IMG/VR virus record: IMGVR_UViG_3300023118_000008
Location: 92,188 to 144,326 of that record
Direction: 5' to 3' (one strand)
Origin: a virus
Taxonomy: Duplodnaviria > Heunggongvirae > Uroviricota > Caudoviricetes
DNA length: 52,139 nt
The notes beneath the pieces were generated by a model. That model saw only the letters and a list, made by a program, of their open reading frames with translations, was not told the DNA's origin and did no database searches. The first letter of the stretch is position 1. Each line of letters begins with the position of its first letter. Made by a program: the position numbers and the translations under genes. Positions 1-52,139 of the stretch are shown here, piece after piece.

Positions 1-383
1 TAGTATTCTTTTTTATTAAGTGCTGTTTGTATGGATGGTTTAAAACCTCTTAGTAAATTCTTAGCAGTCGCCCTAATTTTACCATATTTACTCTCTATAA
101 TTACATTGAAACAAGATACATATTCAACAACATTAAAAAAATCAAAGAATTTGGAATTAAATTCAAATAATTGCTGAGCAAAGTATTCAGTCTTATTTTC
201 TGCGGATTTTATAGTAGGTGTTCTGCCTGATTTTAAGTTGTGTAAGTTTTGCAAAACCACACCATATTTCGTAGAGCATTTAAATAGTGCAGATGTATTG
301 AAGGGTATTTCTAAAGGTGTTAGCATTAAATCAATCATAGACGGGGTTAAAAACTCCTCAAATTCTTTTTTAAATTTTTCCAT
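1..383 (-). CDS. Partial ORF running off the window edge; putative free-standing homing endonuclease, N-terminal repeats only
   Basis: Manual translation from ATG at 383 stays open to position 1 (MEKFKKEFEEFLTP...). Two repeats: STKYGVVLQNLHNLKSGRTPTIKSAENKTEYF and ESKYGKIRATAKNLLRGFKPSIQTALNKKEY. They resemble repeats of phage homing endonucleases (recalled); catalytic domain not in window. Confidence 0.6.
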   Translation of the reverse strand, partial: MEKFKKEFEEFLTPSMIDLMLTPLEIPFNTSALFKCSTKYGVVLQNLHNLKSGRTPTIKSAENKTEYFAQQLFEFNSKFFDFFNVVEYVSCFNVIIESKYGKIRATAKNLLRGFKPSIQTALNKKEY

Positions 384-402
384 TTTTGGGCTTATAAAAA
401 AC

Positions 403-449
403 GAGAAAACCTGTAGTCGGCTATGGCGGTAGCTTCATACAGGTATCTC
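403..449 (-). promoter_or_regulatory. Structured leader hairpin or attenuator upstream of the partial ORF
   Basis: Minus strand GAGAT-ACCTGTA...GCTA-CCGCCA-TAGC...TACAGGT-TTTCTC followed by GTTTTTT; nested inverted repeats. Confidence 0.45.
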
Positions 450-511
450 TTATTTATGTCTTTTGTTGTAATATTTAACTTTCAAAAATCTCCGCCAAGA
501 AATCTAAAAAA

Positions 512-543
512 CAAATATAGAATTTTAATTTCAGGAAAGCAAA
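512..543 (-). promoter_or_regulatory. Bacteroidota sigma-A type promoter
   Basis: TTTG (543-540), 20-nt spacer, TATATTTG (519-512); matches the -33/-7 consensus. Confidence 0.75.
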
Positions 544-547
544 TATA

Positions 548-2635
548 TTAACTTGGATTTAACTTCTCCTCTTTGATTTGTTCTCTTGTTTTTATATCAC
601 CATACTTTTCTATAAGCCAATCCTTCTTATAAAGCTCCTTTTGTCTTGTTGTGGGGATTTTTTTTATGCAGTAAGCTACAAACTTCTCTTCTTCTTTTTC
701 TTTCTTTAAACGCTCTCTATCGAGTTTTCTTTCATTTTCAATTCTTTCGGTTGTACCATCTACGTTTTCTATGATTTTTCTAGCTTCGTTAATATAATAA
801 TCATAATTAATTTTATAGTCTTCTTTTTCATAGTAATCCATAAACATAGTTACTTTATTACCACCAACTGTTAATTCCTGTCTACCATCACTATAATTTT
901 TCTTTAGATTTAAACCATCGTTTGAAACATAAAATCGAATAACCTTATCCTCAATATTTTTTACAGTTTCTTTTTCATCATTTTCCAAAGTATAATTTTG
1001 ATTACTTTGAATTTTCTTACCTATGCAAAAATCATAAATTCCCTGGTTTTCAATTTCTCCATAATTGCCGACTTTTAAATGATTTTTTACAGTTGTTTCT
1101 ACAGGTACATCATTTACAAAATATCTTTTAACTGCTATTTGTACAATTCTTTGTGAGCGGTTTTTATGTAATTCTAAATCAATATCAAAAGCTCCTTTAG
1201 TTTTAACTTTTCCTTTAATATCGATTCCTAAATAATTGTTAATATCTCTAATGAATAATTTTTCATAAGTTCCATATTCCAATTGAAGTTTGGTTAAGTT
1301 TTCAATTCCTACACATACATCATAAACCTCTCTTTTTTTATTTTTTGGAACTACAAGTTCTGCTCCATCAGTATTCGCCATAACCATTCTCACACCTTCT
1401 ATTTGAGAAAGTTGTTCACATAACATAGAAAGTATTAATTGACCGTTTACCGTAATGGCCATTTGAAAGAATTTATCGTATAGGAAGCTATGTTCATCTC
1501 CTCCTTTTCCAAATGCAGAATTCAAAAGTAACTTAATTGCAGTATTCTGAGGATTTGATTTGGGAATTAATTTTCTCTTTTCAAATAATTCTTCATATAA
1601 ATCACAAAAAGAATCCGATAAATGTCTTGGATAAAATCTATTTTTAATTGAAATATTGGGATAAAAACTCGCAAAATCTATCGATAGAACAATGTTTTCT
1701 TGATCCGACTTAAAAATGGAATTTCCGCGAGCTGAATGAAGCCCGCCTAATCCATAGAAATATTCCATCTCATCAAAGACCATCAAGTGTTTGAAAGCAT
1801 CCTTTGTATTTTCTGTTATTTCTTGTTCTCTGAAAAACTCTAAAACACTATTAAACTCAGGTGTTGAGAATTTTATATAAGGTAGAATTAATTCATTTAA
1901 TTTAATTACAGATTGTCTTGTCTGCATTTTTTTAAGTTTTGGTTTTTCTATGCCTAATTTCTGCGACATCAAATCTAAAAACAATGCTTCTCCTATACTA
2001 CTATCCGATTTATTAAATAATTCTAAGTGTGGATTTTCCAATTGTTGAGCAAATCTTAATTCTACAAGTTTTTCTGATTTTATAAAAAACTGTTCTGTCG
2101 CATCAGTATCATTTTTACAATAGTCTATAATATCATCGAATTTATCAGCCGATAGTACTTCGTCAAACTTATAAGGTAAGTCTTGGATTTTTTTCCAATT
2201 CATTGAATACTCCAACCATTTTAAACTCGTAGATCTAGCACGGTTGTTGTAATGTGACTGAAGGTATAAATCTAATTGTTGAAAGCTCAATTTAGATTCT
2301 TGATAAGGTGGGAATTCTTTATTATTTATTTTTTGAATAACATTTTGAGCAAACTCCATAATGTGTTTTGCTTTTGTTTTTCCCGAAAGTTTTTTAAAGG
2401 AAGCGTTAGCATCAATAAGCCATTGTAAAACTTGAGCATCGAAACGAACATTATTAAACCCAATGAAAAACCACTTATTCTCAGTACCTTGTTTTAAAAA
2501 AGCCACTAATTCTTCATACTCGTCTTTTCTTTCACTAATTTCAAAAACTTTATATCTATCCTTGTATTTAAAGACAGCGCAAAAAATTGAAAGGTATGTT
2601 TCAATATCGTATGTTAGAAAAGTTGTATTATTCAT
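548..2635 (-). CDS. polB: Family B DNA polymerase with 3'-5' exonuclease domain (695 aa)
   Basis: ExoI YDIETY; polymerase motifs DFASFYP, KLLLNSAFGKGG, ANTDG. Confidence 0.95.
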   Translation of the reverse strand: MNNTTFLTYDIETYLSIFCAVFKYKDRYKVFEISERKDEYEELVAFLKQGTENKWFFIGFNNVRFDAQVLQWLIDANASFKKLSGKTKAKHIMEFAQNVIQKINNKEFPPYQESKLSFQQLDLYLQSHYNNRARSTSLKWLEYSMNWKKIQDLPYKFDEVLSADKFDDIIDYCKNDTDATEQFFIKSEKLVELRFAQQLENPHLELFNKSDSSIGEALFLDLMSQKLGIEKPKLKKMQTRQSVIKLNELILPYIKFSTPEFNSVLEFFREQEITENTKDAFKHLMVFDEMEYFYGLGGLHSARGNSIFKSDQENIVLSIDFASFYPNISIKNRFYPRHLSDSFCDLYEELFEKRKLIPKSNPQNTAIKLLLNSAFGKGGDEHSFLYDKFFQMAITVNGQLILSMLCEQLSQIEGVRMVMANTDGAELVVPKNKKREVYDVCVGIENLTKLQLEYGTYEKLFIRDINNYLGIDIKGKVKTKGAFDIDLELHKNRSQRIVQIAVKRYFVNDVPVETTVKNHLKVGNYGEIENQGIYDFCIGKKIQSNQNYTLENDEKETVKNIEDKVIRFYVSNDGLNLKKNYSDGRQELTVGGNKVTMFMDYYEKEDYKINYDYYINEARKIIENVDGTTERIENERKLDRERLKKEKEEEKFVAYCIKKIPTTRQKELYKKDWLIEKYGDIKTREQIKEEKLNPS

Positions 2636-2706
2636 ACTTTTTTAATTTTAAGCTCTAGTTCTTTGTCTAGGATTTCGTATTGTTTTTGTTTGTAAATGTA
2701 GTTCAA
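2632..2706 (-). CDS. Possible 24-aa micro-ORF (TTG start, MNYIYKQKQYEILDKELELKIKKV) or remnant 3' end of a disrupted gene
   Basis: Fills the tnpB-polB gap; its TGA overlaps the polB ATG (ATGA coupling). Confidence 0.35.
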   Translation of the reverse strand: MNYIYKQKQYEILDKELELKIKKV

Positions 2707-2830
2707 AATTATAGTTGTTTTATGCCTTTCGGCGTTATACGTTTATTTCCTGCTTCACTGACCTTGCTAATGCAAGAATTCTCCACAGGCACTTCGGGCA
2801 TTTTTGTCCCTGATATCCCTTCTTTTAAAA
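2685..2830 (-). ncRNA. Putative omegaRNA overlapping the tnpB 3' end (boundaries approximate)
   Basis: GTGCCTGTGGAG (2792-2781) and TGAAGCAGGAA (2757-2747), recalled as typical tnpB 3'-end motifs; hairpins CTTGC-ATTA-GCAAG (2776-2763) and GCC-GAAA-GGC (2733-2724). Confidence 0.5.
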
Positions 2831-3890
2831 TATTTTTCGCCGCGTTTACGTCACGGTCTATTTCTAAATTACAAGATTGGCATTTGTAAGTTCTTTCAGA
2901 TAAAAGTAGAATTTCTTTGATATTACCGCAACCTGAACAAGTTTTAGACGAGGGAAACCATCTGTTTATCTTAATTAAATTCCTACCATACCAATTGGCT
3001 TTATATTCCAACATCTGAATCAATAATCCCCAAGATACGTCTGAAATATGTCTTGAAAGCTTCTTTTCTTCCATCATACCTTTTACATTTAATGTTTCAA
3101 CTACTATGACTTGGTTATCGTTCAATAGTAAGTTTGTGATTTGATGATAGTAATGCTCTTTCTGTCTTGTAATTTTTCTGTTTATTTTTGCTATTTTTAT
3201 TTTTAACTTTTTTCTGTTTTTACCTCCTTTTTTAGTTTTTGAATGCTTTCTTTGTAACTTCCTTAATTTATAGTAACTTGATTGCAAATACTTTTTATTT
3301 TCAAAAGTTTCTCCTTCAGATGTGATAATTAAGTCTTTAATTCCTAAGTCTATTCCAATTTTACTTTCTATTTTAGTTAGAATTTTAGTATCCTCAGTTT
3401 CTATTAAAAACGTAGCGAAATAATCTCCACATAAATCTCTTTTGAAAGTACACTGCCTTATTTTATGTGTTTCTAAAAGTTCATTATACTTTTCAGAGGT
3501 CTTAAAATTTATTTTGTTTTTAAAGAATGTTAAGTTATTATTTTTACAGTATATTGCTTGGTAAGCTGTAAATGATTGCAAACCTTTCTTAGACTTAAAT
3601 TTTGGAAATCCTGAGCCTTTAAAGAACTTTTTATATGAAGCTTCAACATTTAAAGCGGCATCTCTTACACACTCTGCTTTACATTTTACAAGCCACTCAG
3701 ACTCTTTTCTTATTTGAAATAATTCTTTTTGCATTGTGAAACCTGAGACATTTACTTTGTAATTGTCCCAAAGATGCTTTTTGTACTCAAGGCACAGATT
3801 GTAGGAAAAACGATATCCCTGGAAATGCTGTTCTAACATTTCTTTTTGCTTTTCTGTTGGATATAGTTTTACTTTTAATCTTTTGTACAT
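2709..3890 (-). CDS. tnpB: IS200/IS605-type RNA-guided endonuclease TnpB (393 aa), catalytic triad intact
   Basis: N-terminal KLYPT...HTH, RuvC-I IGIDLGIKD, RuvC-II VVETLNV, zinc finger CSGCG/CQSC, RuvC-III DRDVNAAKNI. Confidence 0.95.
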   Translation of the reverse strand: MYKRLKVKLYPTEKQKEMLEQHFQGYRFSYNLCLEYKKHLWDNYKVNVSGFTMQKELFQIRKESEWLVKCKAECVRDAALNVEASYKKFFKGSGFPKFKSKKGLQSFTAYQAIYCKNNNLTFFKNKINFKTSEKYNELLETHKIRQCTFKRDLCGDYFATFLIETEDTKILTKIESKIGIDLGIKDLIITSEGETFENKKYLQSSYYKLRKLQRKHSKTKKGGKNRKKLKIKIAKINRKITRQKEHYYHQITNLLLNDNQVIVVETLNVKGMMEEKKLSRHISDVSWGLLIQMLEYKANWYGRNLIKINRWFPSSKTCSGCGNIKEILLLSERTYKCQSCNLEIDRDVNAAKNILKEGISGTKMPEVPVENSCISKVSEAGNKRITPKGIKQL

Positions 3891-3891
3891 T

Positions 3892-4008
3892 TTACTCGCT
3901 TAATTTCATTCTGACAAAAGCGGAAACTGAAATATTCAGTTCTTTTGCTTTTTGTTCTATTTTTTCTTTAAGTTCTTTTGAAACTCTTATTCTTAGTTCC
4001 TCTTCCAT
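3892..4008 (-). CDS. Ribbon-helix-helix (CopG/Arc-like) protein, 38 aa, MEEELRIRVSKELKEKIEQKAKELNISVSAFVRMKLSE
   Basis: Manual translation; alternating beta-strand LRIRV then two helices with ISVSAFVR; stop 1 nt before the tnpB ATG. Confidence 0.85.
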   Translation of the reverse strand: MEEELRIRVSKELKEKIEQKAKELNISVSAFVRMKLSE

Positions 4009-4018
4009 AATACTCCTA

Positions 4019-4050
4019 CAAATATACTACATTAATATTTAATATCCAAA
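4019..4050 (-). promoter_or_regulatory. Bacteroidota sigma-A type promoter for the RHH-tnpB operon
   Basis: TTTG (4050-4047), 20 nt, TATATTTG (4026-4019). Confidence 0.85.
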
Positions 4051-4075
4051 TGTTTGTTAATTTTTTAACGTTTTA

Positions 4076-4471
4076 CTACCAAGTTTCTGTAGAAGTTTTT
4101 CTGACCCACCAACTCAAACTGTTTCTTAGTTCCAAACGATAACTATCAAAAATATCTCCAACCTTGTAGAAATCTTCTCTTGGTATTTTCCTAATCAGGT
4201 AGTAATCATACTCTACTGACCACACTCCCCAAGTATTGTCTATGTATTTTCCTTTGTGCAGATTTATAAAGTGAATGACTCCATAGCCGTTTTTATAAGC
4301 CATTACCATAGCAATTTCTTTGTCTTTCTTTTTTATGGCGAAGTCTACACTATTCAAATGACATTTATATGTCCAATTTATCTTTCCTACCTTTACCTTA
4401 ATCTTTTTACAAGTTGACGTGATTTTGTCTCTTATTTGTTTTTCGGCGATATTATTGTTGAAGCTAAACAT
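4076..4471 (-). CDS. Hypothetical protein (131 aa)
   Basis: ORF track; tiles with neighbours; tandem TAG TAA stop. Confidence 0.8.
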   Translation of the reverse strand: MFSFNNNIAEKQIRDKITSTCKKIKVKVGKINWTYKCHLNSVDFAIKKKDKEIAMVMAYKNGYGVIHFINLHKGKYIDNTWGVWSVEYDYYLIRKIPREDFYKVGDIFDSYRLELRNSLSWWVRKTSTETW

Positions 4472-4697
4472 ACTCCCTAATACCCTCTCTTAGGAATTTA
4501 TCAGCATATTCTCCTAAAACTTTTACCGAACCTTCATAACTGTCTTTATTCCTTGATACGTATTGTACCTCTTCAATTAGGTCTGTTATTAAATTACACA
4601 TCACTTTCAAGTTTTCTAATCTTTGAGGATCTCTTGAGGCACAACCTAGAGGATTTATTTCTCCTACTAATTTATTTACTATTTCCTTAATTTCCAT
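4464..4697 (-). CDS. Hypothetical protein (77 aa)
   Basis: ORF track; tight packing. Confidence 0.8.
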   Translation of the reverse strand: MEIKEIVNKLVGEINPLGCASRDPQRLENLKVMCNLITDLIEEVQYVSRNKDSYEGSVKVLGEYADKFLREGIREYV

Positions 4698-4698
4698 A

Positions 4699-4962
4699 TT
4701 ACATTACTTTATCAAACCAATTTAAAAACTGTTCTATCTCTTTTCTGTCTATAAATAAAAATCCGTGAATTTCAATCTCTTGTGTTTCAATGCTTTTCCC
4801 GCCGATTTTAAAAGAGCCGTCAAACTTTAATACTCTCTCAACTTCTTGTAAAAAGTCTTCTTTGAGTTCATACATCTCTCCACATGGATAATTATTTACT
4901 TCTATTTTACCATTGTCGGCAGAGAAGCTCCCATAAGTTAATTCAATCTTGTTTGTTACCAT
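4699..4962 (-). CDS. Hypothetical protein (87 aa)
   Basis: ORF track; tight packing. Confidence 0.8.
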   Translation of the reverse strand: MVTNKIELTYGSFSADNGKIEVNNYPCGEMYELKEDFLQEVERVLKFDGSFKIGGKSIETQEIEIHGFLFIDRKEIEQFLNWFDKVM

Positions 4963-4964
4963 AA

Positions 4965-5195
4965 TTATTGTTTTAAAAGTTCTTTGAATTGTTCTAGTGT
5001 TATTTCTTGGTCTTCTTCTACCGTAATGCTTATATTGAAGTCTGTTTCATCAAAATATAGAAAATTATAATAATCTTCTTTGCATAGCCAATATTCGGGA
5101 CCAATTTTAAAACCAGCATCTAAAATAAGATTTTCAACCTCTCACAGCATTTCTTCATCCTTGATGAACAATACCTTGTTTTTAAATTGTTTCAT
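4965..5195 (-). pseudogene. Small gene with one in-frame TGA at codon 18
   Basis: MKQFKNKVLFIKDEEML*EVENLILDAGFKIGPEYWLCKEDYYNFLYFDETDFNISITVEEDQEITLEQFKELLKQ; exactly fills the gap between neighbours; TGA at 5144-5142. Confidence 0.7.
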
Positions 5196-5197
5196 AA

Positions 5198-5353
5198 TTA
5201 AGCGTCTTTTAATTCAGACCATTTGTTATAAAAGTTAACTTCTAAGTTTCTTAGTTCAATATCCTCCATTTCAGATAGGCCAATTAAACTTTTCTGAGTT
5301 TTTAATTCTTCTAATTTATCGTGGATTTTCCACACTTCTTCCTTTGTTGTCAT
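5198..5353 (-). CDS. Hypothetical protein (51 aa, MTTKEEVWKIHDKLEELK...)
   Basis: Manual translation; below ORF-track cutoff; tiles with the next gene. Confidence 0.65.
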   Translation of the reverse strand: MTTKEEVWKIHDKLEELKTQKSLIGLSEMEDIELRNLEVNFYNKWSELKDA

Positions 5354-5597
5354 CCTCTATATAATTAATTGGTTCTATGTCTTGTTCGTTTTTCTTTTCT
5401 ATAACTACTTCGGGTAAAAGGTTTCTAATTCCTAATTCGTTTGTTTTATAGCTTTCTGTTGTGTACTCTGTTTCTATGATTATTTGTTTAGGAACTAACT
5501 CTTGCAAACCTGCTTCGTTTACTTGGAATACTTCTGTTTCTTGTTCTTGCGCCGAAATTAAAATCGGAAAGAGTAAAAATAATATTAATGTTTTCAT
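5316..5597 (-). CDS. Exported protein with signal peptide and internal repeat (93 aa)
   Basis: MKTLILFLLFPILISAQ signal peptide; repeats NEAGLQELVPKQIIIE and NELGIRNLLPEVVIEK. Confidence 0.75.
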   Translation of the reverse strand: MKTLILFLLFPILISAQEQETEVFQVNEAGLQELVPKQIIIETEYTTESYKTNELGIRNLLPEVVIEKKNEQDIEPINYIEDDNKGRSVENPR

Positions 5598-5935
5598 GTC
5601 TTTTTATTATGTTCGATTAATTTATTGAAAGTGTCCTCTTCTAGAATTTCTTTTAAAATATTTTCCGCCTTATGAGTCCAACTAAGTCCATAATGAGCTG
5701 ACTTAACTTGTTCATAGCCTAATTTTTCTAGATTTTCTTCTATAAGATCTATTATTTCGTCAGTAGCTATTCTTGCAAAATAACCTTCTTCCTGCTCTTT
5801 GAATAATTGTTCTATGTGAGTTCTTATAATCCATTCGCAGTCTGCTTTAAACTGTTCTTGTTCTTTAGTTTTGTGCGACCAAATTGAATGGCTGTCTCCA
5901 TCGCAATCATATTGTGTCAGTTCAAATATTTTCAT
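5594..5935 (-). CDS. Hypothetical protein (113 aa)
   Basis: ORF track; ATGA overlaps at both ends. Confidence 0.8.
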   Translation of the reverse strand: MKIFELTQYDCDGDSHSIWSHKTKEQEQFKADCEWIIRTHIEQLFKEQEEGYFARIATDEIIDLIEENLEKLGYEQVKSAHYGLSWTHKAENILKEILEEDTFNKLIEHNKKT

Positions 5936-6546
5936 TTATTCATTTTATAAAATTCTTCTGCAAATCCTTGACTGCACAGGCTTCGAAAGTCCGAGTCATT
6001 TTTTATATTTTCTTTGAATGGGTAAAACTCTTCTAAGTGGTTTATTGCACTTTTATGTAGGAAGGCTAAAGACGGCTTATTTCTTCCTGGTCTTACGTAT
6101 AAGTTTTCATTCTTCAAAACGTCTTCCCACTTTTTAAACTTCTTTTCGGGCATTTTAAAATTTCCCCACAAAGCTGTCTTTTTAGTATAAGGACTTCCAA
6201 ATTCCCAAGGTTGGTAAACGTCTTTAGGTTTTCCTAAGATGTCTTTGAGCTTTCCATTATAAGGGTTCTCTAGGAGCCACCATTCAGGTTTAGTTTCTTC
6301 AATTATTCTTAAACAATGATTGACTAAAAACATACCTTTTTCTAAGTCATTTTCTTTGTGAAAGCCTTTGGCTGTTGAAAATTCTCTACAAACTGGATTG
6401 CATATTACTCCATGTATTTTTAAATCGGTTTTGAAGTTTTCTACGCCGATTTCCTCACCAATTAAAATAACATTATAATCAGAGTCCTTTTGATAGAAAT
6501 AGCTGTCAGAACCTATATCAGCACAGAGGTGTAAGATGTTTCTCAT
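5932..6546 (-). CDS. Divergent short DNA cytosine-C5 methyltransferase-like protein (204 aa)
   Basis: Motif I-like ILHLCADIGS, motif IV-like NPVCREFS (catalytic Cys), motif VI WLLENP. Confidence 0.7.
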   Translation of the reverse strand: MRNILHLCADIGSDSYFYQKDSDYNVILIGEEIGVENFKTDLKIHGVICNPVCREFSTAKGFHKENDLEKGMFLVNHCLRIIEETKPEWWLLENPYNGKLKDILGKPKDVYQPWEFGSPYTKKTALWGNFKMPEKKFKKWEDVLKNENLYVRPGRNKPSLAFLHKSAINHLEEFYPFKENIKNDSDFRSLCSQGFAEEFYKMNK

Positions 6547-6977
6547 TTGACTAATTTTAGTGCTTCATTAATTCCAAACTCTAGAGCTTCTTCGTAGGAT
6601 TTATTTGCTTTTTTATCAACCCATTCCTTGAAAATTTCTTTAGTTTTATCTAGTTTATTAGTGACTTCTTTTACACGTATATCATCAATTTCTTTTGTAA
6701 CTGAATAATAAAAAGCACGATTTAATTTATACCCTATTGATTTTTGTACGAATATATTAATATGCACATTATACTCTTCTCTCAACCATTTTTGTAAAAG
6801 TTCTAAACTTGGTGCGGGATATCTTGAATATTCGCTTGTACTCTCTTTGTAACCTTGGAACGTATAATCTAACTCCCCATAAAAATCATAAAATTTATCG
6901 TCCGATTGAATCCAATCAAAACCTTTCTTTACGGCTAACTTTACTGTTTCGTAACTTGCTATTTTAAGTTCTTTCAT
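6543..6977 (-). CDS. Hypothetical protein (about 144 aa)
   Basis: ORF track start 6983 trimmed to the ATG at 6977, which forms an ATGA overlap. Confidence 0.8.
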   Translation of the reverse strand: MKELKIASYETVKLAVKKGFDWIQSDDKFYDFYGELDYTFQGYKESTSEYSRYPAPSLELLQKWLREEYNVHINIFVQKSIGYKLNRAFYYSVTKEIDDIRVKEVTNKLDKTKEIFKEWVDKKANKSYEEALEFGINEALKLVK

Positions 6978-7213
6978 TCCCATTTTAAGATTTTAATGTT
7001 ATTTGCTTTTTCAAACTGTTTTATTACCTTTTCTTTTTCTTCGCGGATTTTTTGTGCTGAGGGTTTCTTAGTAAATTTAGAAATTGCCACGCCTTGGTCT
7101 GATGAACCTATGCATTCAGTTTCTATGTTATGGGTTGAATACAGCTCTTTGAAGACGTTATCATCATGTTCTAATCCTTTTTCTAAAAGATATTTTGTGT
7201 CTATTTCTTGCAT
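6974..7213 (-). CDS. Hypothetical protein (79 aa, MQEIDTKY...)
   Basis: ORF track start 7288 overlaps the upstream gene by 59 nt; ATG at 7213 follows an AT-rich leader. Confidence 0.7.
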   Translation of the reverse strand: MQEIDTKYLLEKGLEHDDNVFKELYSTHNIETECIGSSDQGVAISKFTKKPSAQKIREEKEKVIKQFEKANNIKILKWE

Positions 7214-7229
7214 AATTGTTCTCTTAGTT

Positions 7230-7427
7230 TCATAAAATAAAATCTGTTGTATGTTCGTAATTAGTTTTTCCACAATATTTGCATTCATATTTTTCTGTAA
7301 CTCCGCAATTATTGTAATTTCCTATTTTTGCTGAAAATTTTCTCATGGAATCATCGAAATACTTTATCTTTTTAGATTGGAATTTAAACCAATGGAGTCC
7401 TAAAGTGCAAAGAATATGTTTATTCAT
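7230..7427 (-). CDS. Small zinc-finger-like protein (65 aa; CTLGLH...CKYCG)
   Basis: Cys/His pattern; start at ATGA overlap 7427. Confidence 0.7.
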   Translation of the reverse strand: MNKHILCTLGLHWFKFQSKKIKYFDDSMRKFSAKIGNYNNCGVTEKYECKYCGKTNYEHTTDFIL

Positions 7428-7741
7428 ACTGTTTTCTGTATTAATTGTTCTGCATTTATTGGGCAAATTCCTAAATGTTTTCTGTTTAAATAAATTCCAT
7501 TGAAGTAATATGGAACTGTTTTACCTTCTTTTATTTTAGTTTTTATTTCCGCGATTTTAAAAGGTTCTGAAACTTGGCCTTTGGTTTGATATATTTCGCC
7601 GACTCTAAAAGGCTTTAATTGCTTTGGTGTTTCTTCCTTCCCTAAATGCTTTTCTATGATAGCTCTTAAATCCTGTTGTGTGATTTGTTTTTTAGCTATA
7701 AAGTTATTCCAAATGTCTTTGGTTAGGCTTGTTGTTAACAT
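7424..7741 (-). CDS. Hypothetical protein (105 aa, MLTTSLTK...)
   Basis: ORF track, start trimmed to ATG 7741. Confidence 0.75.
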   Translation of the reverse strand: MLTTSLTKDIWNNFIAKKQITQQDLRAIIEKHLGKEETPKQLKPFRVGEIYQTKGQVSEPFKIAEIKTKIKEGKTVPYYFNGIYLNRKHLGICPINAEQLIQKTV

Positions 7742-7833
7742 CTTCCCGCCCAAATTATCAGTGCAAATCCGCCGAAAAAAGCTAAAATCATCAAAGCGCA
7801 GCCATACGTATTTGGAGTTTCGTTATTTTTCAT
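7735..7833 (-). CDS. Single-pass membrane micro-protein (32 aa, MKNNETPNTYGCALMILAFFGGFALIIWAGRC)
   Basis: Manual translation; fills the gap; one hydrophobic segment. Confidence 0.6.
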   Translation of the reverse strand: MKNNETPNTYGCALMILAFFGGFALIIWAGRC

Positions 7834-8113
7834 TGTTTTCAAATTTTAAAAGACATTCATCTAAGAAATTTAGTCTTTGGCTTTTCGTATTAAACCAAGA
7901 AAATTTGCAATTATAAGATAAACCTTTATTTAAATATTTAGAATCCATGTTTGCTTCTACCTCTTTCAAATTTTTCCAACAGATAAAAATACTATGCCAA
8001 CTTCTTACTTTACAACAAAAATAGTCTTTCTCTATTACTATGTTATTTTCAATTTTCTTCAAAAAACTTTTTCTAAACGGTTTAAATAACCTTGAATTTA
8101 TTAATGCTTTCAT
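7823..8113 (-). CDS. Hypothetical protein (96 aa)
   Basis: ORF track; tiling. Confidence 0.75.
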   Translation of the reverse strand: MKALINSRLFKPFRKSFLKKIENNIVIEKDYFCCKVRSWHSIFICWKNLKEVEANMDSKYLNKGLSYNCKFSWFNTKSQRLNFLDECLLKFENNEK

Positions 8114-8256
8114 CTTATAATTAATTGTGTTTTACTCTTCCAATGACCTGCTCTTGCTTTAGGGTCTCGATTTATTTCAACTAAACCTTTTGACTCCTGT
8201 ATGATAAATACTTCAACTGGCTCTTTATCTCCGAAGTGGTGGTAATAGTATTTCAT
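8110..8256 (-). CDS. Hypothetical protein (48 aa, MKYYYHHFGDKEPVEVF...)
   Basis: Manual translation; ATGA overlaps at both ends. Confidence 0.7.
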   Translation of the reverse strand: MKYYYHHFGDKEPVEVFIIQESKGLVEINRDPKARAGHWKSKTQLIIR

Positions 8257-8483
8257 CTTTTATCCAATAAATCTTGAATTATTAGATGTGAAAATTGACT
8301 AGGAGGTACATTGATGGGTTTCTTGTCTTTTAAATAATTCTGAACCTCTACCTCTGTTTCAAAGTATTTATTTAAAATGAAGTCTACATGCCGTAATTTA
8401 TTATCTTTAGTTTTAACATAAAATCCACCGTCACATAAGTCTCCTTCAAAATATTCTAAGCTTAATTTGTTGATTATATACAT
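8253..8483 (-). CDS. Hypothetical protein (76 aa, MYIINKLSL...)
   Basis: ORF track start 8549 trimmed to ATG 8483, 5 nt after the upstream stop. Confidence 0.75.
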   Translation of the reverse strand: MYIINKLSLEYFEGDLCDGGFYVKTKDNKLRHVDFILNKYFETEVEVQNYLKDKKPINVPPSQFSHLIIQDLLDKR

Positions 8484-8764
8484 ATCTCTTATTTTTCTAG
8501 TTCTAATTTTACTTCCTGCCAATATTTCTGTCTTTCTAAAACACTCCAATTTCTATCTTTATCTTGGTAAACGCTTACTAAGTCTTGATAGGAACTATTT
8601 TCTTCCAAAATCTCATCAACTGCCAATATTGCACATGCTTTAATTTGGCTTTTATACATTGAAATAGGCAGTTTACCTTTTAACAATTTCATATTGTGCT
8701 TTATATCAAACTTTCCAATCAATTCTTCCGCTTTTTCCTTTGGTGTCATATCTCTTATTTTTCT
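8481..8764 (-). repeat. Perfect 18-bp direct repeat AGAAAAATAAGAGATATG at 8498-8481 and 8764-8747
   Basis: Both copies read directly; each ends in the ATG of a gene. Confidence 0.9.
8489..8749 (-). CDS. Hypothetical protein (86 aa, MTPKEKAEELI...WQEVKLELEK)
   Basis: ORF track; first gene after the promoter element at 8776. Confidence 0.85.
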   Translation of the reverse strand: MTPKEKAEELIGKFDIKHNMKLLKGKLPISMYKSQIKACAILAVDEILEENSSYQDLVSVYQDKDRNWSVLERQKYWQEVKLELEK

Positions 8765-8768
8765 TCTA

Positions 8769-8776
8769 CAAATATA
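8769..8776 (-). promoter_or_regulatory. -7 promoter element TATATTTG starting the early/accessory unit
   Basis: Consensus TAnnTTTG just downstream of a terminator; no clean -33 TTTG. Confidence 0.6.
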
Positions 8777-8820
8777 TGAAATGTTTTCTATTGGAAATTT
8801 ACTTTAACAAAACTTTATAA

Positions 8821-8848
8821 AATAAAAAATCCCCTAATTAAAGGGGAC
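8821..8848 (-). terminator. Intrinsic terminator ending the structural operon
   Basis: TCCCC-TTTAATTA-GGGGA followed by TTTTTTATT. Confidence 0.85.
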
Positions 8849-8854
8849 TTGTGT

Positions 8855-9013
8855 TTAGGCATTTAATTCATCTATTTGGGCTTGTAATTTTGCTAACATT
8901 GTGGCTACGTCCTCGCCGTCTTGAATCGGTTCACTTGGAACGTCTTTTGGGAGTGTCAGGGCGTTTAGCTGCGCTACTAGGTTGAACCAATAAAATTTAA
9001 AGAGCTGTTTCAT
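8855..9013 (-). CDS. Hypothetical protein (52 aa, MKQLFKFYWFNLVAQ...DVATMLAKLQAQIDELNA)
   Basis: Manual translation; lies between the HNH stop and the terminator; C-terminal coiled-coil-like segment. Confidence 0.7.
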   Translation of the reverse strand: MKQLFKFYWFNLVAQLNALTLPKDVPSEPIQDGEDVATMLAKLQAQIDELNA

Positions 9014-9041
9014 TTTTGTTTATTTATGTTTGGGTTAGTTA

Positions 9042-10202
9042 TTAATCTGTTATCTCTACTGTGTAGTTATAAAGGGCTTCATAGACTCTTGGATCGATCA
9101 AGTCTTTCCATTTGTCGGCTTTTTGTTTTATATAGTCTTCTTTAGCTGTCTTGTACGGTTGGAAGGCTTGCTCTACAGTATCAAAGGTTCCAAGGTAGGT
9201 TGTTTTTCCGAGTTTTGAAATTCTTGCTTGAAACTTATTTCCTTTAATTTTAACACCTGTTGGAAGATTACTATTATTTTTTGACTTCTTCTTTCCAAAT
9301 ATACTGTTAATCTCTCTAGGTACAAAAGAACAAGTTTCTGAGGAGTAGATTTTATTACCTTTTTGTAAAATATCCTTATCTAGTTCAAATCCCCTCATAG
9401 TTTCAGGATTATAGTTGTCTTCCATCCATTGAGCGAAATTCTGAAAATTAAACCATTTTTCAGCTACCATACAATCCTTATAGGTTGGATATTTTTCGTG
9501 CCTCTCCTTACTGTAACACCTACTAAAGATGTTGTACCAAACATTTGAATAAAATAGGGTGAGTGAGTCTTTACAATTAAATTTACCATATCCTAAAAAT
9601 CCTTGTGTTTCAGTTCGGAAATTATAGTTTTTAACCATCCCATCTTTCACATGACTATATTTCTGATTTTTGACTATTGTTCCATCTTCAAACTGTATAT
9701 CTAAGTCATCAGCATTTCTATAAGCTATTATTTCTAATTTACAACCTCTGCTGTTAGTAAATATCTCGCCTGTTCTGTCATTAAATCTTGGCTGGTTGTT
9801 ACTGCTATAACCGCATTTTTTACATCCAGAGCCTCTTAACAAAGTATAGGGGAAGGACTGCCTTTCTCCATGCAGGGGACAATCATACTTGACTTTTTGT
9901 TTTGGATTTTCATATACTGTTTTATCGAAAAACAAACTTGAATGCAGTTGTTGTACTTTTTCTCTGAATGTTTCGATTGTCCATTTTCTAACAGCCTCCC
10001 CAGATTTTAATTTACCACACTCTCTACAACCATTACCCGCAGTATGTGCACTCGCTGTCTGAGAAAAATCTCCATGTATTGGGCAGGTAATAATTACAGG
10101 TGTTTTTGAATTTATATATGTAGACTTAGAATAGTTATAAAAATTATTATGTTTTTTATTCGAATCTAAAATGAATTCTACAATGGTTTTATTTTTAGAC
10201 AT
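9042..10202 (-). CDS. Free-standing HNH-family homing endonuclease with two Zn-ribbon repeats and a C-terminal AP2-like domain (386 aa)
   Basis: CPIHG...CRECG and CPLHG...CKKCG; WYNIFSRCY...KWFNFQNF...LDKDIL...ETCSFVPREIN nuclease core; GVKIKGNKFQARI...YLGTFDT AP2-like end. Confidence 0.8.
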   Translation of the reverse strand: MSKNKTIVEFILDSNKKHNNFYNYSKSTYINSKTPVIITCPIHGDFSQTASAHTAGNGCRECGKLKSGEAVRKWTIETFREKVQQLHSSLFFDKTVYENPKQKVKYDCPLHGERQSFPYTLLRGSGCKKCGYSSNNQPRFNDRTGEIFTNSRGCKLEIIAYRNADDLDIQFEDGTIVKNQKYSHVKDGMVKNYNFRTETQGFLGYGKFNCKDSLTLFYSNVWYNIFSRCYSKERHEKYPTYKDCMVAEKWFNFQNFAQWMEDNYNPETMRGFELDKDILQKGNKIYSSETCSFVPREINSIFGKKKSKNNSNLPTGVKIKGNKFQARISKLGKTTYLGTFDTVEQAFQPYKTAKEDYIKQKADKWKDLIDPRVYEALYNYTVEITD

Positions 10203-10329
10203 CTCTTAAAGCATGTTTAATTAACATTCTGACTTGAGAGGAGACTGAAATAGCATTAGACTCTGATAGCACTTTTAGTTGATCCATTAGTTCCTTGCTA
10301 ATCCTAATTTGTAATAATTCTGTTTTCAT
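10195..10329 (-). CDS. Ribbon-helix-helix protein, 44 aa, MKTELLQIRISKELMDQLKVLSESNAISVSSQVRMLIKHALRDV
   Basis: Manual translation; RHH pattern; overlaps the HNH start by 8 nt; similar to 3892-4008. Confidence 0.85.
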   Translation of the reverse strand: MKTELLQIRISKELMDQLKVLSESNAISVSSQVRMLIKHALRDV

Positions 10330-10384
10330 TGTATCTTTACTTTATATGTTTGTAAGTACATATAATAGCAAACATCGTGCCAAA

Positions 10385-13300
10385 CTATTCTTCTGCTTCA
10401 TCTTCTGCCAAAACTGTAGCGAATGTCCAATTCTCAAGAGTACTCTTATTAAAAAAGTAATAGGTGTCCTTAGCAGAATTAAAATCCCTGAACCTGTTGT
10501 AATCCCTAATAAACGGTAGATTTTTTGACATCCACTTGTACCTAACCGTACTACCTGCATAAGTTCCTCTATCTATAATGTTTGAATCGGCTAAATCTAG
10601 TATATTTCCTAAATCTTTGAATTTCTCGGCACTAATAAGGGGGTTTGAAAGCATTGAGTCTAATTGCATAGGAAGAGAAACGGTAGAAGAAGTTTGTTCC
10701 ACTGCTACTCTTAGAAGCATATATTCGCTCCAAGCAAGTAGAAATCCAGGATCTTCGGGGTCATCATCTGACATATTGGCAAGTAATATTACAGCCACTG
10801 CTAATGCGTTCGCTACTGCAAGCTCTAAACCAGTTCTGCGTAAGTTCCTAACTGAGACTTCATCTGTCATATACTCTTGCCAAACTTTCTTTAACTCTTT
10901 TGGTTTTAGAACATTTTGAGCTAAGCTGTTTGTCATATTGAACACAGTATTCCATGAACCTTGAGTCCAAACCCCTTCGGAAATATTGTAGCTTCTACTT
11001 TTCAGTTTGTTCTGCGCCGCAACTTGCCACCACGAGCTATGTAAAAGGAAGAAATTTGCAATTGCGTTCCTGTTCGCCAAACTCTTCTGATAACTTGGAA
11101 TTTGTGAATCGACACGTTGAACCGCCGAAGCCGTCCTTGCATTAATTGCCTCTAAAATCAAGTCTACCTTCTCTACAGCTTCCTCTTCACTTATATTCAA
11201 CTGCTCAGAAATACCTTTGTAATTAGGCGCAATAACTCCATCTTTTACAGGAATCAGATCTTTGAACAAAGGTTGTTTTTCCCAAAGTAATCTGTCATCT
11301 TTTCCATTAATTTCTTTGAACTGTCTGTATGTTACTACTTCTCCGCCGAAAACTCTATAGTCATAAATAACAGAAAGCATGACAGTACTAGTTACAGGAT
11401 AGTTTCCAGCACTATGTAAGGCAGAAGATGATTTCAAAAGGCCTCTCCCTGCTCTACCGATGTAAGAGTTTTCAAATCTTTCTGTCAAGTTATACAAACC
11501 AAATCTTTCACCATAAACCGAGATCTCAGCTTTACCATTATATTTCATTATCTCTCCTATCTGCTGACTCCCTTTCCTTGCAAATTCTTTCTGAGCCTCC
11601 TTATAAGCCGTCTTATCTAAAACTTCTCCTACAGCCACTTCTAAAAATTCTTGGGTCTTTCCTTGTAGGGCTGAAGTCAAAGGTACCGTTACACCCGCTA
11701 AATTTGAGAACCTTACCCAGCTGTTGAAAGTCCTTGCCAGTTTTCCTAAATCTACTTTTTTCCCTAAAACTGTTACTTCTTGGCTGAATGTTTCTTTTAC
11801 GCCATAGAAATTTGATTTTAGAAAAGAGTTGAACATCTTGTAGGTGTTTGTTGCCTCAGCTTTCTTGCCTGGATAATCTCTTTCTTTGGATAATATGAAA
11901 TCCTCTAAAACTAGCATATCTGAGATGTTTTCTCTTCTTGCTTTGTATAAAGCCGACTGTTGGTTGAACATTGCATAAGACAATAGTAATTCGTCTGTTA
12001 CGTCCGTTTGGTCTTTTAGTTTTCTTACCCCGTAAGTTGGTACTGACAATAATGAGTCCCCTTTTTTCGCCAAATTTCCTGATATATCTTGCCCTAAATC
12101 TGCTTCATCCTCCCTGATGCCTGTCATATCGGAAGCGATTTCTTTTAGGGATTTTAACTTATTTGAACCGTCAGTCAGTCTTCTTGTCGCGCTCCTTAAA
12201 AACTGAGGCAGTTGATACCTGTCATGTGTTGCTTGAATACCATAATTTTCCAAGCTTTGATCATTATAATCCAAAAGTATTTTTCTCGCTTCAAACTCTT
12301 GAATGTTTTGAGTGGCGTTTCCTTGCTCGTCTATTCCATATCTTTTATAATACTCATCATTTCTTACAGAGTTTTTATAGGCTTCTGTGTATTGGTCTCT
12401 TTGCGCGTCACGATTTTCAATCCACTTAGGATTTACATTTGCCATCGCGTCATAATAGCTCCAACTTGGCTTTACTTCTACTATTCCGCTTTCAATGAAG
12501 TCTAAAACTGCTCCTGATTGGTTTTCAGAGACATTTCTTTTTAGTTCCTCGTAAGCTTCTGTAAATCCTTGAGGCTCTGTTCTCTTATAGTATGGTAAAA
12601 GTTTTCTTCTAGCGAACTCTGCTAAGACATTATCGTAATCTGATCTCCCTTCTATAAGATTAGTCAAAAAAGGTGTCATTATAACAGATTCTCCTTTTTG
12701 AAGTCTTTGCAAGTTTCTTCTTAGTGACTCTATACTGCTTCTTCCATTTGAAGTTACATGTTTTAGAATGAAATCAATCTCTTGTGGGCTGTTTGAAGCT
12801 ATTTCGTTAGATTCTAAGTCTTTTCTGTAACTTTCATTAACTGTTGAAACTGATTGGATTTCTGTTGCTTCTTGTTCTTCTAGAATGTTTCTTGCCTCGG
12901 CGGTCTGAACTTCTAAAATAGATTGGGCATCCCTTATTGCAGATGTTTCTGTTTCATACATTGCAAAAACATCTGTTTCGGAAGGATTATTTAAGTTTTT
13001 ATTTCCGCGAATAATTGTAGAGATTATTGATTGCTGTTCTCTGATGTTTTGTGCAAATTCTAAAGCTTCGGGTGAGCCCAATTCTAAAAGTCTTGCTACC
13101 AAAGAGTTATTAGGATCAAAATTATCCCAAAATTCTTGAGTAAAATCTGTTGTTGCATTGTTATTTAAAAAGTCAAACTTCTCTTGCTCTGTACTTAGGC
13201 TGTTTAATTCGTCTAGAAACTTTTGAGGAATTCCTTGAGAGTTAGAATTAGCCTTGTAGAATTCAGAGTTTAAAAGCATTAGGTTTTGCAATCCCACGAC

Positions 13301-52037: not shown

Positions 52038-52077
52038 ACTTTACCATTCTATTTTTGGTGCACATTCTCTTAGGATC

Positions 52078-52139
52078 TTAAATTCATCACACCAGTCGCA
52101 TTTATTTTCCTTGTAGTGCTTTTTGCAGGCTTTTTTTCC
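52078..52139 (-). CDS. 3' end of a Cys-rich ORF cut by the window edge (...GKKACKKHYKENKCDWCDEF)
   Basis: Open frame from the window end to TAA at 52080-52078. Confidence 0.45.

Follow-up and report, generated by a model that had tools for sequence, protein, structure and literature searches.

Arc-like ribbon-helix-helix (RHH) open reading frames (ORFs) have been described in IStrons, and hundreds of Arc homologues have been found with TnpB, homing endonucleases, other mobile elements and toxin-antitoxin (TA) systems (Zedaveinyte et al., bioRxiv 10.1101/2023.11.20.567912). Moon et al. showed that Arc homologues bind the IS605 promoter (by ChIP-seq) and repress a tnpB-promoter reporter, and they also reported homing-endonuclease neighbours and noted that microproteins of 50 amino acids (aa) or fewer escape annotation (bioRxiv 10.64898/2026.09.24.754181). 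In archaea, Altae-Tran et al. 2023 described RHH/MazE-TnpB pairs, for which a toxin-antitoxin reading was proposed (PMC10691335). Here we analyze two RHH micro-genes, RHH1 and RHH2, in a 52,139-nt stretch of phage DNA (the window), which forms the final 52 kb of a 144-kb virus record (IMGVR_UViG_3300023118_000008, here G000; completeness rating 98%). RHH1 directly precedes a tnpB gene, and RHH2 directly precedes a gene for a 386-aa homing-endonuclease-like protein. An earlier note on this DNA took such a pairing to be possibly undescribed, but the three studies cited above had already reported it.

We consider it likely that RHH1 and RHH2 are Arc/CopG-like dimers that autorepress small operons composed of a leader, an RHH gene and a nuclease gene, and that they belong to a portable module. 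The mechanism most likely follows the published Arc repressor model, with a small operon that represses itself and so holds a selfish nuclease in check.

Two RHH micro-genes and the genes behind them

Both micro-ORFs reported in the earlier note were found in the ORF listing (Table 1) and encode proteins of 38 aa (RHH1) and 44 aa (RHH2). Their proposed paralogy is borne out by BLASTP, which aligns them with 15 of 32 positions identical (47%) and 24 of 32 positive (E 6e-7), including the segment pairs ELRIRVSKEL/LLQIRISKEL and ISVSAFVRM/ISVSSQVRM. RHH1 exceeds the Pfam cut-offs for NikA-like (30.5 bits, cut-off 27), its best match, and for RHH_1 (24.0 bits, cut-off 20.5). RHH2 matches RHH_5 below the cut-off (21.5 bits, cut-off 26, E 1.9e-4), and PF07878 is found in its close homologues. 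PHROGs names Arc-like repressor families for RHH1 and RHH2 alike, and a search of the PDB with the RHH1-type profile returned CopG as the best match, albeit a weak one (E 0.028). By these profile matches and, for RHH2, by its BLASTP alignment with RHH1, both proteins belong to the ribbon-helix-helix (Arc/MetJ/CopG) superfamily, and they are the only RHH matches to PF01402 across the 144-kb genome.

Comparison with relatives gave ratios of nonsynonymous to synonymous differences (pN/pS) of 0.05-0.25 for RHH1 and 0.09-0.30 for RHH2, with pS at 0.5-0.8 and synonymous sites near saturation. This strong purifying selection on both frames indicates that RHH1 and RHH2 are real genes, and the possibility that they are chance ORFs was ruled out by the pN/pS values together with the number of homologues. 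A related phage carries an orthologue of RHH2 that is 98% identical. Each micro-gene abuts its partner as had been claimed: one nucleotide separates the RHH1 stop codon from the tnpB start (TAA-A-ATG), and RHH2 overlaps the 386-aa gene by 8 nt (ATGTCTAA). Across elements, the RHH-nuclease junctions comprise a 1-nt gap and overlaps of 1, 4, 8 and 11 nt. A programmed frameshift that would fuse the RHH and the nuclease was considered and rejected, as the relative frames vary and the Pfam alignment of TnpB already starts at the protein's Met1.

The identification of the gene behind RHH1 as tnpB is secure. The protein contains the Pfam domains HTH_OrfB_IS605, OrfB_IS605 and TNB, it matches phrog_506 (E 7.5e-110), and its residues 3-363 align with the ISDra2 TnpB structures 8EXA/8H1J (E 6e-51). 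The RuvC residues D181, E265 and D347 and the four zinc-finger cysteines (CxxC..CxxC) are invariant in the TnpB alignment. It is the sole TnpB of the 144-kb genome, in which no match to the Y1 transposase (PF01797), and hence no tnpA, was found. The RHH1-tnpB element is therefore a non-autonomous IS605-type element; Y1_Tnp is present elsewhere on contigs of related phages.

The gene behind RHH2 had been called an HNH nuclease. That label survives in the names of PHROG 'HNH endonuclease' families, of whose profiles no more than the C-terminal parts match the 386-aa protein, but the HNH domain itself was not confirmed: Pfam gave no HNH match at E values up to 1, and no HNH fold appeared among the matches of the Foldseek (PDB) and VIA-wide searches, by which the central domain was barely tested. 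Pfam recognizes only DUF723 zinc ribbons, at the N-terminus. The AlphaFold2 (AF2) model (mean predicted local distance difference test score, pLDDT, 93; 55 in an earlier model from a 2-row alignment) shows an SH3/KOW-like barrel, a central conserved domain and a C-terminal AP2 domain that matches a GCC-box binding domain with a Z score of 6.5. Since only the AP2 and SH3-like domains were matched in the fold searches, no statement can be made about the fold of the central domain, which contains a beta-beta-alpha-like stretch with an invariant D-K-D..N..N pattern and no histidine. Residues 136-386 belong to a family with at least 436 members in phages, each about 250 aa long. The gene is free-standing and encodes DNA-binding modules, and the version at the same site in a related phage is 45% identical and lacks the N-terminal domain. 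Because an HNH fold was not matched and an AP2 domain was found, we refer to the product as a homing-endonuclease-like AP2 protein. Outside the window, at G000:56864-57335(+), the C-terminal half of this gene recurs as a broken copy (53-59% aa identity, with one TGA and a frame change), and no RHH gene was found upstream of it.

With a profile of the two RHHs we collected about 80 small metagenomic proteins, which split into two clear subtypes, one of 38 aa (MEEELRIRVSKELK...VRMKLSE; RHH1-type) and one of 43-45 aa (MKTELLQIRI...SSQVRMLIKHA...; RHH2-type). When the downstream genes were tabulated, a nuclease gene stood directly downstream in almost all of the contexts examined. Wherever the context could be read, the 38-aa type is followed by TnpB (the window, L014, L016, L017, L021, L022, L019, L050-52 and L066); in L013, L015 and L018, the TnpB behind it has lost its RuvC half to a replacement. 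The 43-45-aa type precedes an AP2-type gene in the window and in L033-35 (related phage), GIY-YIG/NUMOD3 genes in four unrelated settings (L013/15/18, L036-44, L055-61 and L062-65), a gene for a DUF723 zinc-ribbon endonuclease-family protein (L045/46), T5orf172 genes (L048 and L068), a gene for an unassigned 182-aa protein (L047) and a gene for a 395-aa TnpB with several different flanks (L023-32). No solo RHH of either subtype was seen among the contexts examined. The notion of an RHH combined with interchangeable selfish nucleases is thus supported, in that the same RHH subfamilies and leaders stand before TnpB, GIY-YIG/NUMOD3, T5orf172, DUF723 and AP2-type genes. In addition, L014 (214-1535) and L017 (2583-3622) carry a third, 44-aa RHH-like type (MIKEKDIVFRVDSELK...) that overlaps the start of a gene for a TnpB of 396/397 aa; its leader has TTTTGGCATGATTATTGTAG, which is related to the RHH2-type leader.

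A megablast search of window positions 1-12000 against GenBank phages gave no match, and tblastn with RHH1 against the same phages gave weak RHH matches only. Among prokaryote genome representatives, which are nearly devoid of the family, the RHH1-type had no match, and the RHH2-type had one, on a 2.2-kb contig of a Flavobacteriales metagenome-assembled genome, where a 237-aa gene overlaps it downstream; this contig is probably phage DNA. IMG/VR yielded no relatives with TnpB as a single query and, with the DNA polymerase as query, one distant phage (L004) that lacks the cassette and whose neighbouring genes are not comparable.

The range of partners bears on whether these are toxin-antitoxin-like pairs, in which the RHH would bind the nuclease protein itself and so neutralize it, either in addition to repressing its transcription or in place of doing so. 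RHH proteins are common type II antitoxins, there are weak Pfam matches to antitoxin families (CopG_antitoxin, HicB, TacA1 and ParD-like), and the upstream position of the presumed antitoxin and the overlapping genes would fit, as would the TA hypothesis and co-fold published for archaeal RHH-TnpB (PMC10691335). The proteins described here, however, are bare RHH domains of 38-45 aa without a C-terminal extension for toxin binding, and near-identical RHH2-type proteins precede unrelated partners (RuvC-type TnpB, GIY-YIG, T5orf172 and AP2-type) that a single binding surface could hardly fit. RHH1-type proteins that are 79-95% identical likewise pair with TnpBs that are about 30% identical (28-32%). 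Given that RHHs without any extension are combined with nucleases of unrelated fold, we regard direct neutralization as unlikely. A complex prediction for TnpB with two copies of RHH1 returned no verdict either way (score 0.01).

Table 1. Features of the two cassettes, in window coordinates.
Feature	Coordinates	Strand	Basis
Candidate guide-encoding flank ACTACATTTACAAACAAAAA, in the DNA polymerase gene leader	2683..2702	-	position; TnpB architecture
Presumed omega-RNA scaffold, overlapping the tnpB 3' end; right end ...TAATTTTGA (2711-2703)	2703..2860	-	alignment; RNA predicted
tnpB, 393 aa, IS200/IS605-type RNA-guided nuclease	2709..3890	-	Pfam, phrog_506, ISDra2 structures, invariant columns
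RHH1 (arc-like) gene, RHH1-type subfamily	3892..4008	-	ORF, Pfam, PDB profile match, pN/pS
RHH1 cassette promoter and candidate operators	4016..4050	-	sequence; motif recurrence in relatives' leaders; binding predicted
Left boundary, RHH1-tnpB element	4061..4075	-	L019 homology starts at 4075; L034 divergence
386-aa homing-endonuclease-like gene	9042..10202	-	Pfam DUF723, PHROG, AF2 model, AP2 fold match
RHH2 (arc-like) gene, RHH2-type subfamily	10195..10329	-	ORF, RHH_5 below cut-off, RHH1 paralogy, orthologue, pN/pS
RHH2 cassette leader	10330..10384	-	motif unique in genome; conserved in relatives' leaders

Mobile units and breaks at the RHH-nuclease junction

The RHH gene and its leader lie inside a mobile TnpB unit. 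Loci with the identical RHH protein P0023 share a block that begins 61 nt before the RHH ATG and stops 46-52 nt beyond the end of tnpB, with different flanks; the right end consists of a hairpin with compensatory changes (CCCGT..ACGGG versus CTCAC..GTGAG) and then AGTATGTCAA, after which four different flanks follow. In P0034 elements the end lies 33 nt beyond the stop codon, with three different flanks. The element of the window is 77% identical in DNA to that of L019, and the match begins exactly at 4075. In the related phage L034, the neighbouring 131-aa gene is kept (85% DNA identity) and RHH1-tnpB is absent, with divergence directly past the stop codon of the 131-aa gene (window 4076). 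On the other side, the sequence common to L013, L015, L018 and L019 stops at ...AAAATTTTGA and gives way to three different flanks, and the right end in the window (2703) was placed only by alignment with these four loci. The ends so placed delimit an element of about 1.37 kb (4075-2703) with its own promoter and repressor gene inside, and a right end at 2703 would make the adjoining flank (Table 1; 2702-2683) the likely guide template.

A clean empty site was not found: L034 is without the element, but its downstream genes also differ (mosaic), so neither a transposon-associated motif (TAM) nor a target can be read from it. The left flanks of the three element groups have no common TAM. Rfam gave no significant match in window positions 1-12000, neither to group I introns nor to any other family; a non-significant match to RAGATH-18 (24.6 bits, E 0.6) falls at 2747-2789(-), within the presumed omega-RNA region of tnpB. 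Further upstream in tnpB (3707-3737(-), codons ~52-62), 31 nt encoding MQKELFQIRKE are 87% identical to the 5' ends of RHH2-type genes (MKTELLQIRI) from many loci, which may be due to chance or may represent a recombination scar.

Comparisons between relatives show where the cassettes come apart. A 185-bp block comprising leader and RHH is 97-98% identical between L014 and L019/L013 and ends 7 nt into tnpB, and the tnpB genes behind it have no detectable DNA similarity. Between the window and L033, the upstream 1851-aa gene is 74-87% identical and the leader and RHH2 are 96% identical. The homology reaches to 10192, which is 3 nt beyond the stop codon of RHH2, and identity is lost from 10191, returning only in the final 139 nt of the putative nuclease gene. 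The encoded proteins are 45% identical, and the N-terminal 135 aa are missing in L033. Because homology between relatives breaks at the RHH-nuclease junction, we conclude that modules have been shuffled there, and this, together with the position of the RHH inside the mobile TnpB element, supports the modular cassette proposed in the earlier note. At the head of a T5orf172 gene, L068 (1049-1180) encodes a hybrid RHH (P0002), whose N-terminus is that of the RHH1-type (MEEELRIRISKELK) and whose C-terminus is that of the RHH2-type (SNALSVSSQVRMLIKHALKDA); its composition suggests recombination inside the RHH gene itself.

The comparison with L033 could also be taken to mean that RHHs are resident phage regulators and that nucleases inserted downstream of them, the linkage reflecting a preference for an insertion site, for RHH2 behaves there as conserved flank and only the nuclease body differs. 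The distant homologue P0078, which precedes replication genes, could be read in the same way. We consider this explanation very unlikely. RHH, leader and nuclease occur together in unrelated contexts (behind an integrase gene or the 1851-aa gene, inside tnpB, next to a tnpA remnant, and in DNA polymerase genes or next to them), RHHs are found inside TnpB elements with several different flanks, and a resident regulator of these subtypes standing by itself was not encountered.

Two of these contexts show cassettes in the place of TnpB or of part of it. In L013, L015 and L018, a cassette of the RHH2-type with a GIY-YIG gene is located within an RHH1-tnpB element (L013:3001-4749): tnpB is reduced to its N-terminal 188 aa, an RHH2-type gene, a gene for a 228-aa GIY-YIG/NUMOD3 endonuclease and a 56-aa ORF take the place of the RuvC part, and the tail of tnpB and the right end are retained. 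In L055 (2024-3350) and L056, an RHH2-type gene with a GIY-YIG gene is divergent from a 95-aa Y1_Tnp remnant, the position that tnpB has in IS605. The Cpn60 gene that adjoins the latter cassette has a faint match to LAGLIDADG_3 and possibly contains an intein.

The DNA polymerase locus appears, from gene positions, to attract RHH-nuclease cassettes. In the window (1-4075), the polymerase gene is immediately preceded by RHH1-tnpB and immediately followed by a 508-aa gene whose N-terminal part weakly resembles the AP2-type gene. In L062 (1347-4059), an RHH-NUMOD3 pair separates a DNA_pol_B_exo2 gene from the one that comes next, and an RHH-T5orf172 pair precedes the polymerase in L068 (1049-3180). 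As for the record itself, its first 126 nt (G000:1-126) recur at G000 144184-144309 (window 51997-52122), which indicates that the contig ends overlap through terminal redundancy or circular permutation; the record is nonetheless classed as being without end repeats. One DNA sequencing run, from a leaf-litter metagenome, may represent the sample from which the record comes.

Leaders, promoters and candidate operators

RHH1 had been said to have a perfect promoter. It does, by the Bacteroidota sigma-A consensus (-33 TTTG at 4050-4047, a 20-nt spacer and -7 TATATTTG at 4026-4019), whereas only 9 of 12 positions agree with the E. coli sigma-70 consensus. Candidate operators overlap this promoter: tandem ATATTAA heptads (4045-4032) and TGTAG-N6-TGTAG (4031-4016) across the -7 box. 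The RHH1-type leaders of relatives likewise have the -7 box between TGTAG repeats 11 bp apart. At L054, the leader of a further RHH has TTTGTGGTA direct repeats, also 11 bp apart, across its -7 box.

The RHH2 leader differs. It contains TGGCACG-N4-TTGC (10382-10368), a perfect match to the sigma-54 -24/-12 consensus that is unique in the 144-kb genome (this consensus reads TGGCAC-N5-TTGC, in which GG at -24 and GC at -12 are invariant), a near-palindrome, TGTACTTACA (10360-10351), as candidate operator, and a 7-bp inverted repeat (ATGTTTG at 10375-10369 and CAAACAT at 10352-10346). The leader is 96% identical to that of L033, between flanks that are 74-87% identical. RHH2-type leaders before AP2-type, GIY-YIG and DUF723 genes have TTGGCACG-N4-TTGCTAT and then the palindrome TTGTAATTACAA, and those before TnpB genes have a degenerate form. 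In L055 and L062, both of the RHH2 subtype, the promoter is of the sigma-A type with TGTAATTACA between -33 and -7, and the L048 leader has TGTATTACA across the -7 box. TGTAATTACA is kept with both promoter types and stands directly past -12 in the sigma-54-like leaders. Because the palindrome, unlike the promoter type, is a constant partner of the RHH2 subtype, it is the best candidate for an RHH2 operator.

The location of the candidate sites is also relevant to the idea that the RHHs are accessory DNA-binding mobility factors, excisionase-like or architectural, that would bind the left end of the element or the homing site and assist TnpA excision/integration, recombination or nuclease targeting. 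In the TnpB elements, the RHH and its candidate sites are found no more than about 70 nt from the left end, the best Pfam match of RHH1 is to a relaxosome accessory RHH (NikA-like), and leader and RHH form the breakpoint of recombination between modules. Yet the genome has no tnpA, the module also serves protein-guided endonucleases that have DNA-binding domains of their own (AP2, NUMOD3 and zinc ribbons), the candidate sites coincide with promoter elements, and the published Arc data show repression. A mobility function is, in our estimation, improbable.

Autorepression, our favoured explanation, would work as follows. Each cassette would be transcribed from its own promoter, RHH1 from one of the Bacteroidota sigma-A type and RHH2 from one with the sigma-54-like -24/-12 motif, and the RHH would be translated first, with translation of the nuclease coupled to it across the 1-nt gap or overlaps of 4-11 nt. 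RHH1 is predicted to bind TGTAG-N6-TGTAG and the heptads, and RHH2 the TGTA(A/C)TTACA palindrome, all of which overlap the promoter. Upon entry into a repressor-free cell, there would be a short burst of nuclease, which would then be kept low because the RHH binds the promoter-overlapping repeats, and the low level would limit harm to phage and host. The cargo is presumably selfish: an omega-RNA-guided TnpB in the first cassette and an AP2-domain homing-endonuclease-like protein in the second. Leader and RHH would be portable and recombine at their 3' end with different nuclease genes, which would explain why TnpB and classical homing endonucleases are found in the same slot. The repressor role attributed here to RHH1 and RHH2 is extrapolated from published work on other Arc homologues.

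The earlier note had also raised cross-regulation between the two cassettes. Predicted DNA-facing strand residues, which follow an alternating pattern, are E4/R6/R8/S10 in RHH1 and L5/Q7/R9/S11 in RHH2. As the subtypes differ at two of these four positions (E/L and R/Q), and as their leaders differ, strong cross-regulation is argued against; cross-regulation between RHH1 and RHH2 is unlikely, with a common TGTA core that may leave some room for it.

Several points weigh against the autorepressed-operon explanation. P0078, the most distant homologue, stands 101 nt upstream of DUF7833 and DnaB genes and is the sole clear exception to the nuclease linkage, and the 386-aa AP2-type protein is only a putative nuclease. 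The operators are proposed from short AT-rich motifs whose within-genome counts are not significant alone. In TnpB-linked and some other leaders, the GC of the sigma-54-like motif is changed to GA or GG, or is deleted, and this degeneration makes the motif's role as a promoter uncertain. The leaders are conserved to about the same degree as the coding sequences, and their conservation may therefore partly reflect recent common descent. The published arc genes, moreover, are usually paired with tnpA and divergent from tnpB, whereas RHH1 is co-directional with tnpB and coupled to it, and the likeness to the Clostridial Arc clade that was tested (seed WP_003367503.1) is one of description, not of sequence comparison.

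A bolder extension, which we put forward tentatively and regard as rather doubtful, is that the ~190-bp leader and RHH serve Flavobacteriales phages both as an expression-control unit and as a recombination handle with a conserved 3' junction, and that the RHH2 lineage is gated by a host sigma-54-type promoter. If so, RuvC-type TnpB, GIY-YIG, T5orf172 and AP2-type endonucleases would be swappable behind one repressor-operator pair, and nuclease bursts in the RHH2 lineage would be tied to a signal from the host. Neighbourhoods and repression are covered by the published Arc studies, but neither the recombination-handle nor the sigma-54-gating point.

Comparison with described Arc and RHH systems

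The main biology, that Arc represses IS605 promoters and neighbours homing endonucleases, is already published, and the present analysis adds modestly to it: a family carried by phages, two paralogues in one genome heading two nuclease types, breakpoints for a portable leader and RHH, subtype-specific operator candidates and a sigma-54-like promoter motif. The regulatory pairing of Arc with TnpB would thereby extend from bacterial chromosomes to phage genomes. That one tightly conserved micro-repressor module is combined with at least five nuclease classes suggests that TnpB and classical homing endonucleases occupy the same ecological slot, and the breakpoints show concretely how recombination rebuilds selfish nuclease cassettes. 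For annotation, RHH genes of 38-45 aa before phage nucleases are real and deserve to be called; for genome editing with TnpB, such leaders could provide compact self-limiting expression switches.

Like the Arc proteins of IS605 elements and IStrons, RHH1 is an RHH microprotein of 50 aa or fewer, of a kind that often goes unannotated, inside a TnpB-carrying insertion sequence. It adjoins tnpB, its relatives adjoin homing endonucleases, and its predicted site overlaps the promoter of the element. Unlike those systems, the element described here has neither tnpA nor a divergent promoter, the carriers are Flavobacteriales-type phages rather than Clostridial chromosomes, one genome holds two paralogues with two nuclease types, and the promoters are of the Bacteroidota sigma-A type or sigma-54-like. 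The archaeal RHH/MazE-TnpB pairs (PMC10691335) share with RHH1-tnpB a small RHH gene directly before tnpB in a predicted operon, but they are immobile and have a rearranged RuvC-III (D to H), whereas the TnpB in the window has the canonical D-E-D residues and belongs to a mobile element.

Functional parallels also lie outside TnpB elements, in mobile units that encode a potentially self-damaging nuclease. Restriction-modification C proteins and I-TevI of phage T4 act by repression at the promoter of the nuclease, which delays or limits its expression. RHH1 and RHH2 would resemble them as small DNA-binding repressors at the promoter of a nuclease; C proteins, however, are helix-turn-helix rather than RHH proteins, and in I-TevI the repression is exerted by a domain of the endonuclease itself, its DNA-binding domain, and not by a separate micro-gene. 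In fold and predicted mode of binding, RHH1 and RHH2 are like omega (ω), CopG and Arc, RHH dimers of 45-70 aa that act on tandem or inverted short repeats overlapping promoters. RHH1, with 38 aa, is shorter than any of these three, which regulate plasmid copy number/partition or the immunity genes of phage P22, whereas RHH1 and RHH2 would regulate nuclease cassettes.

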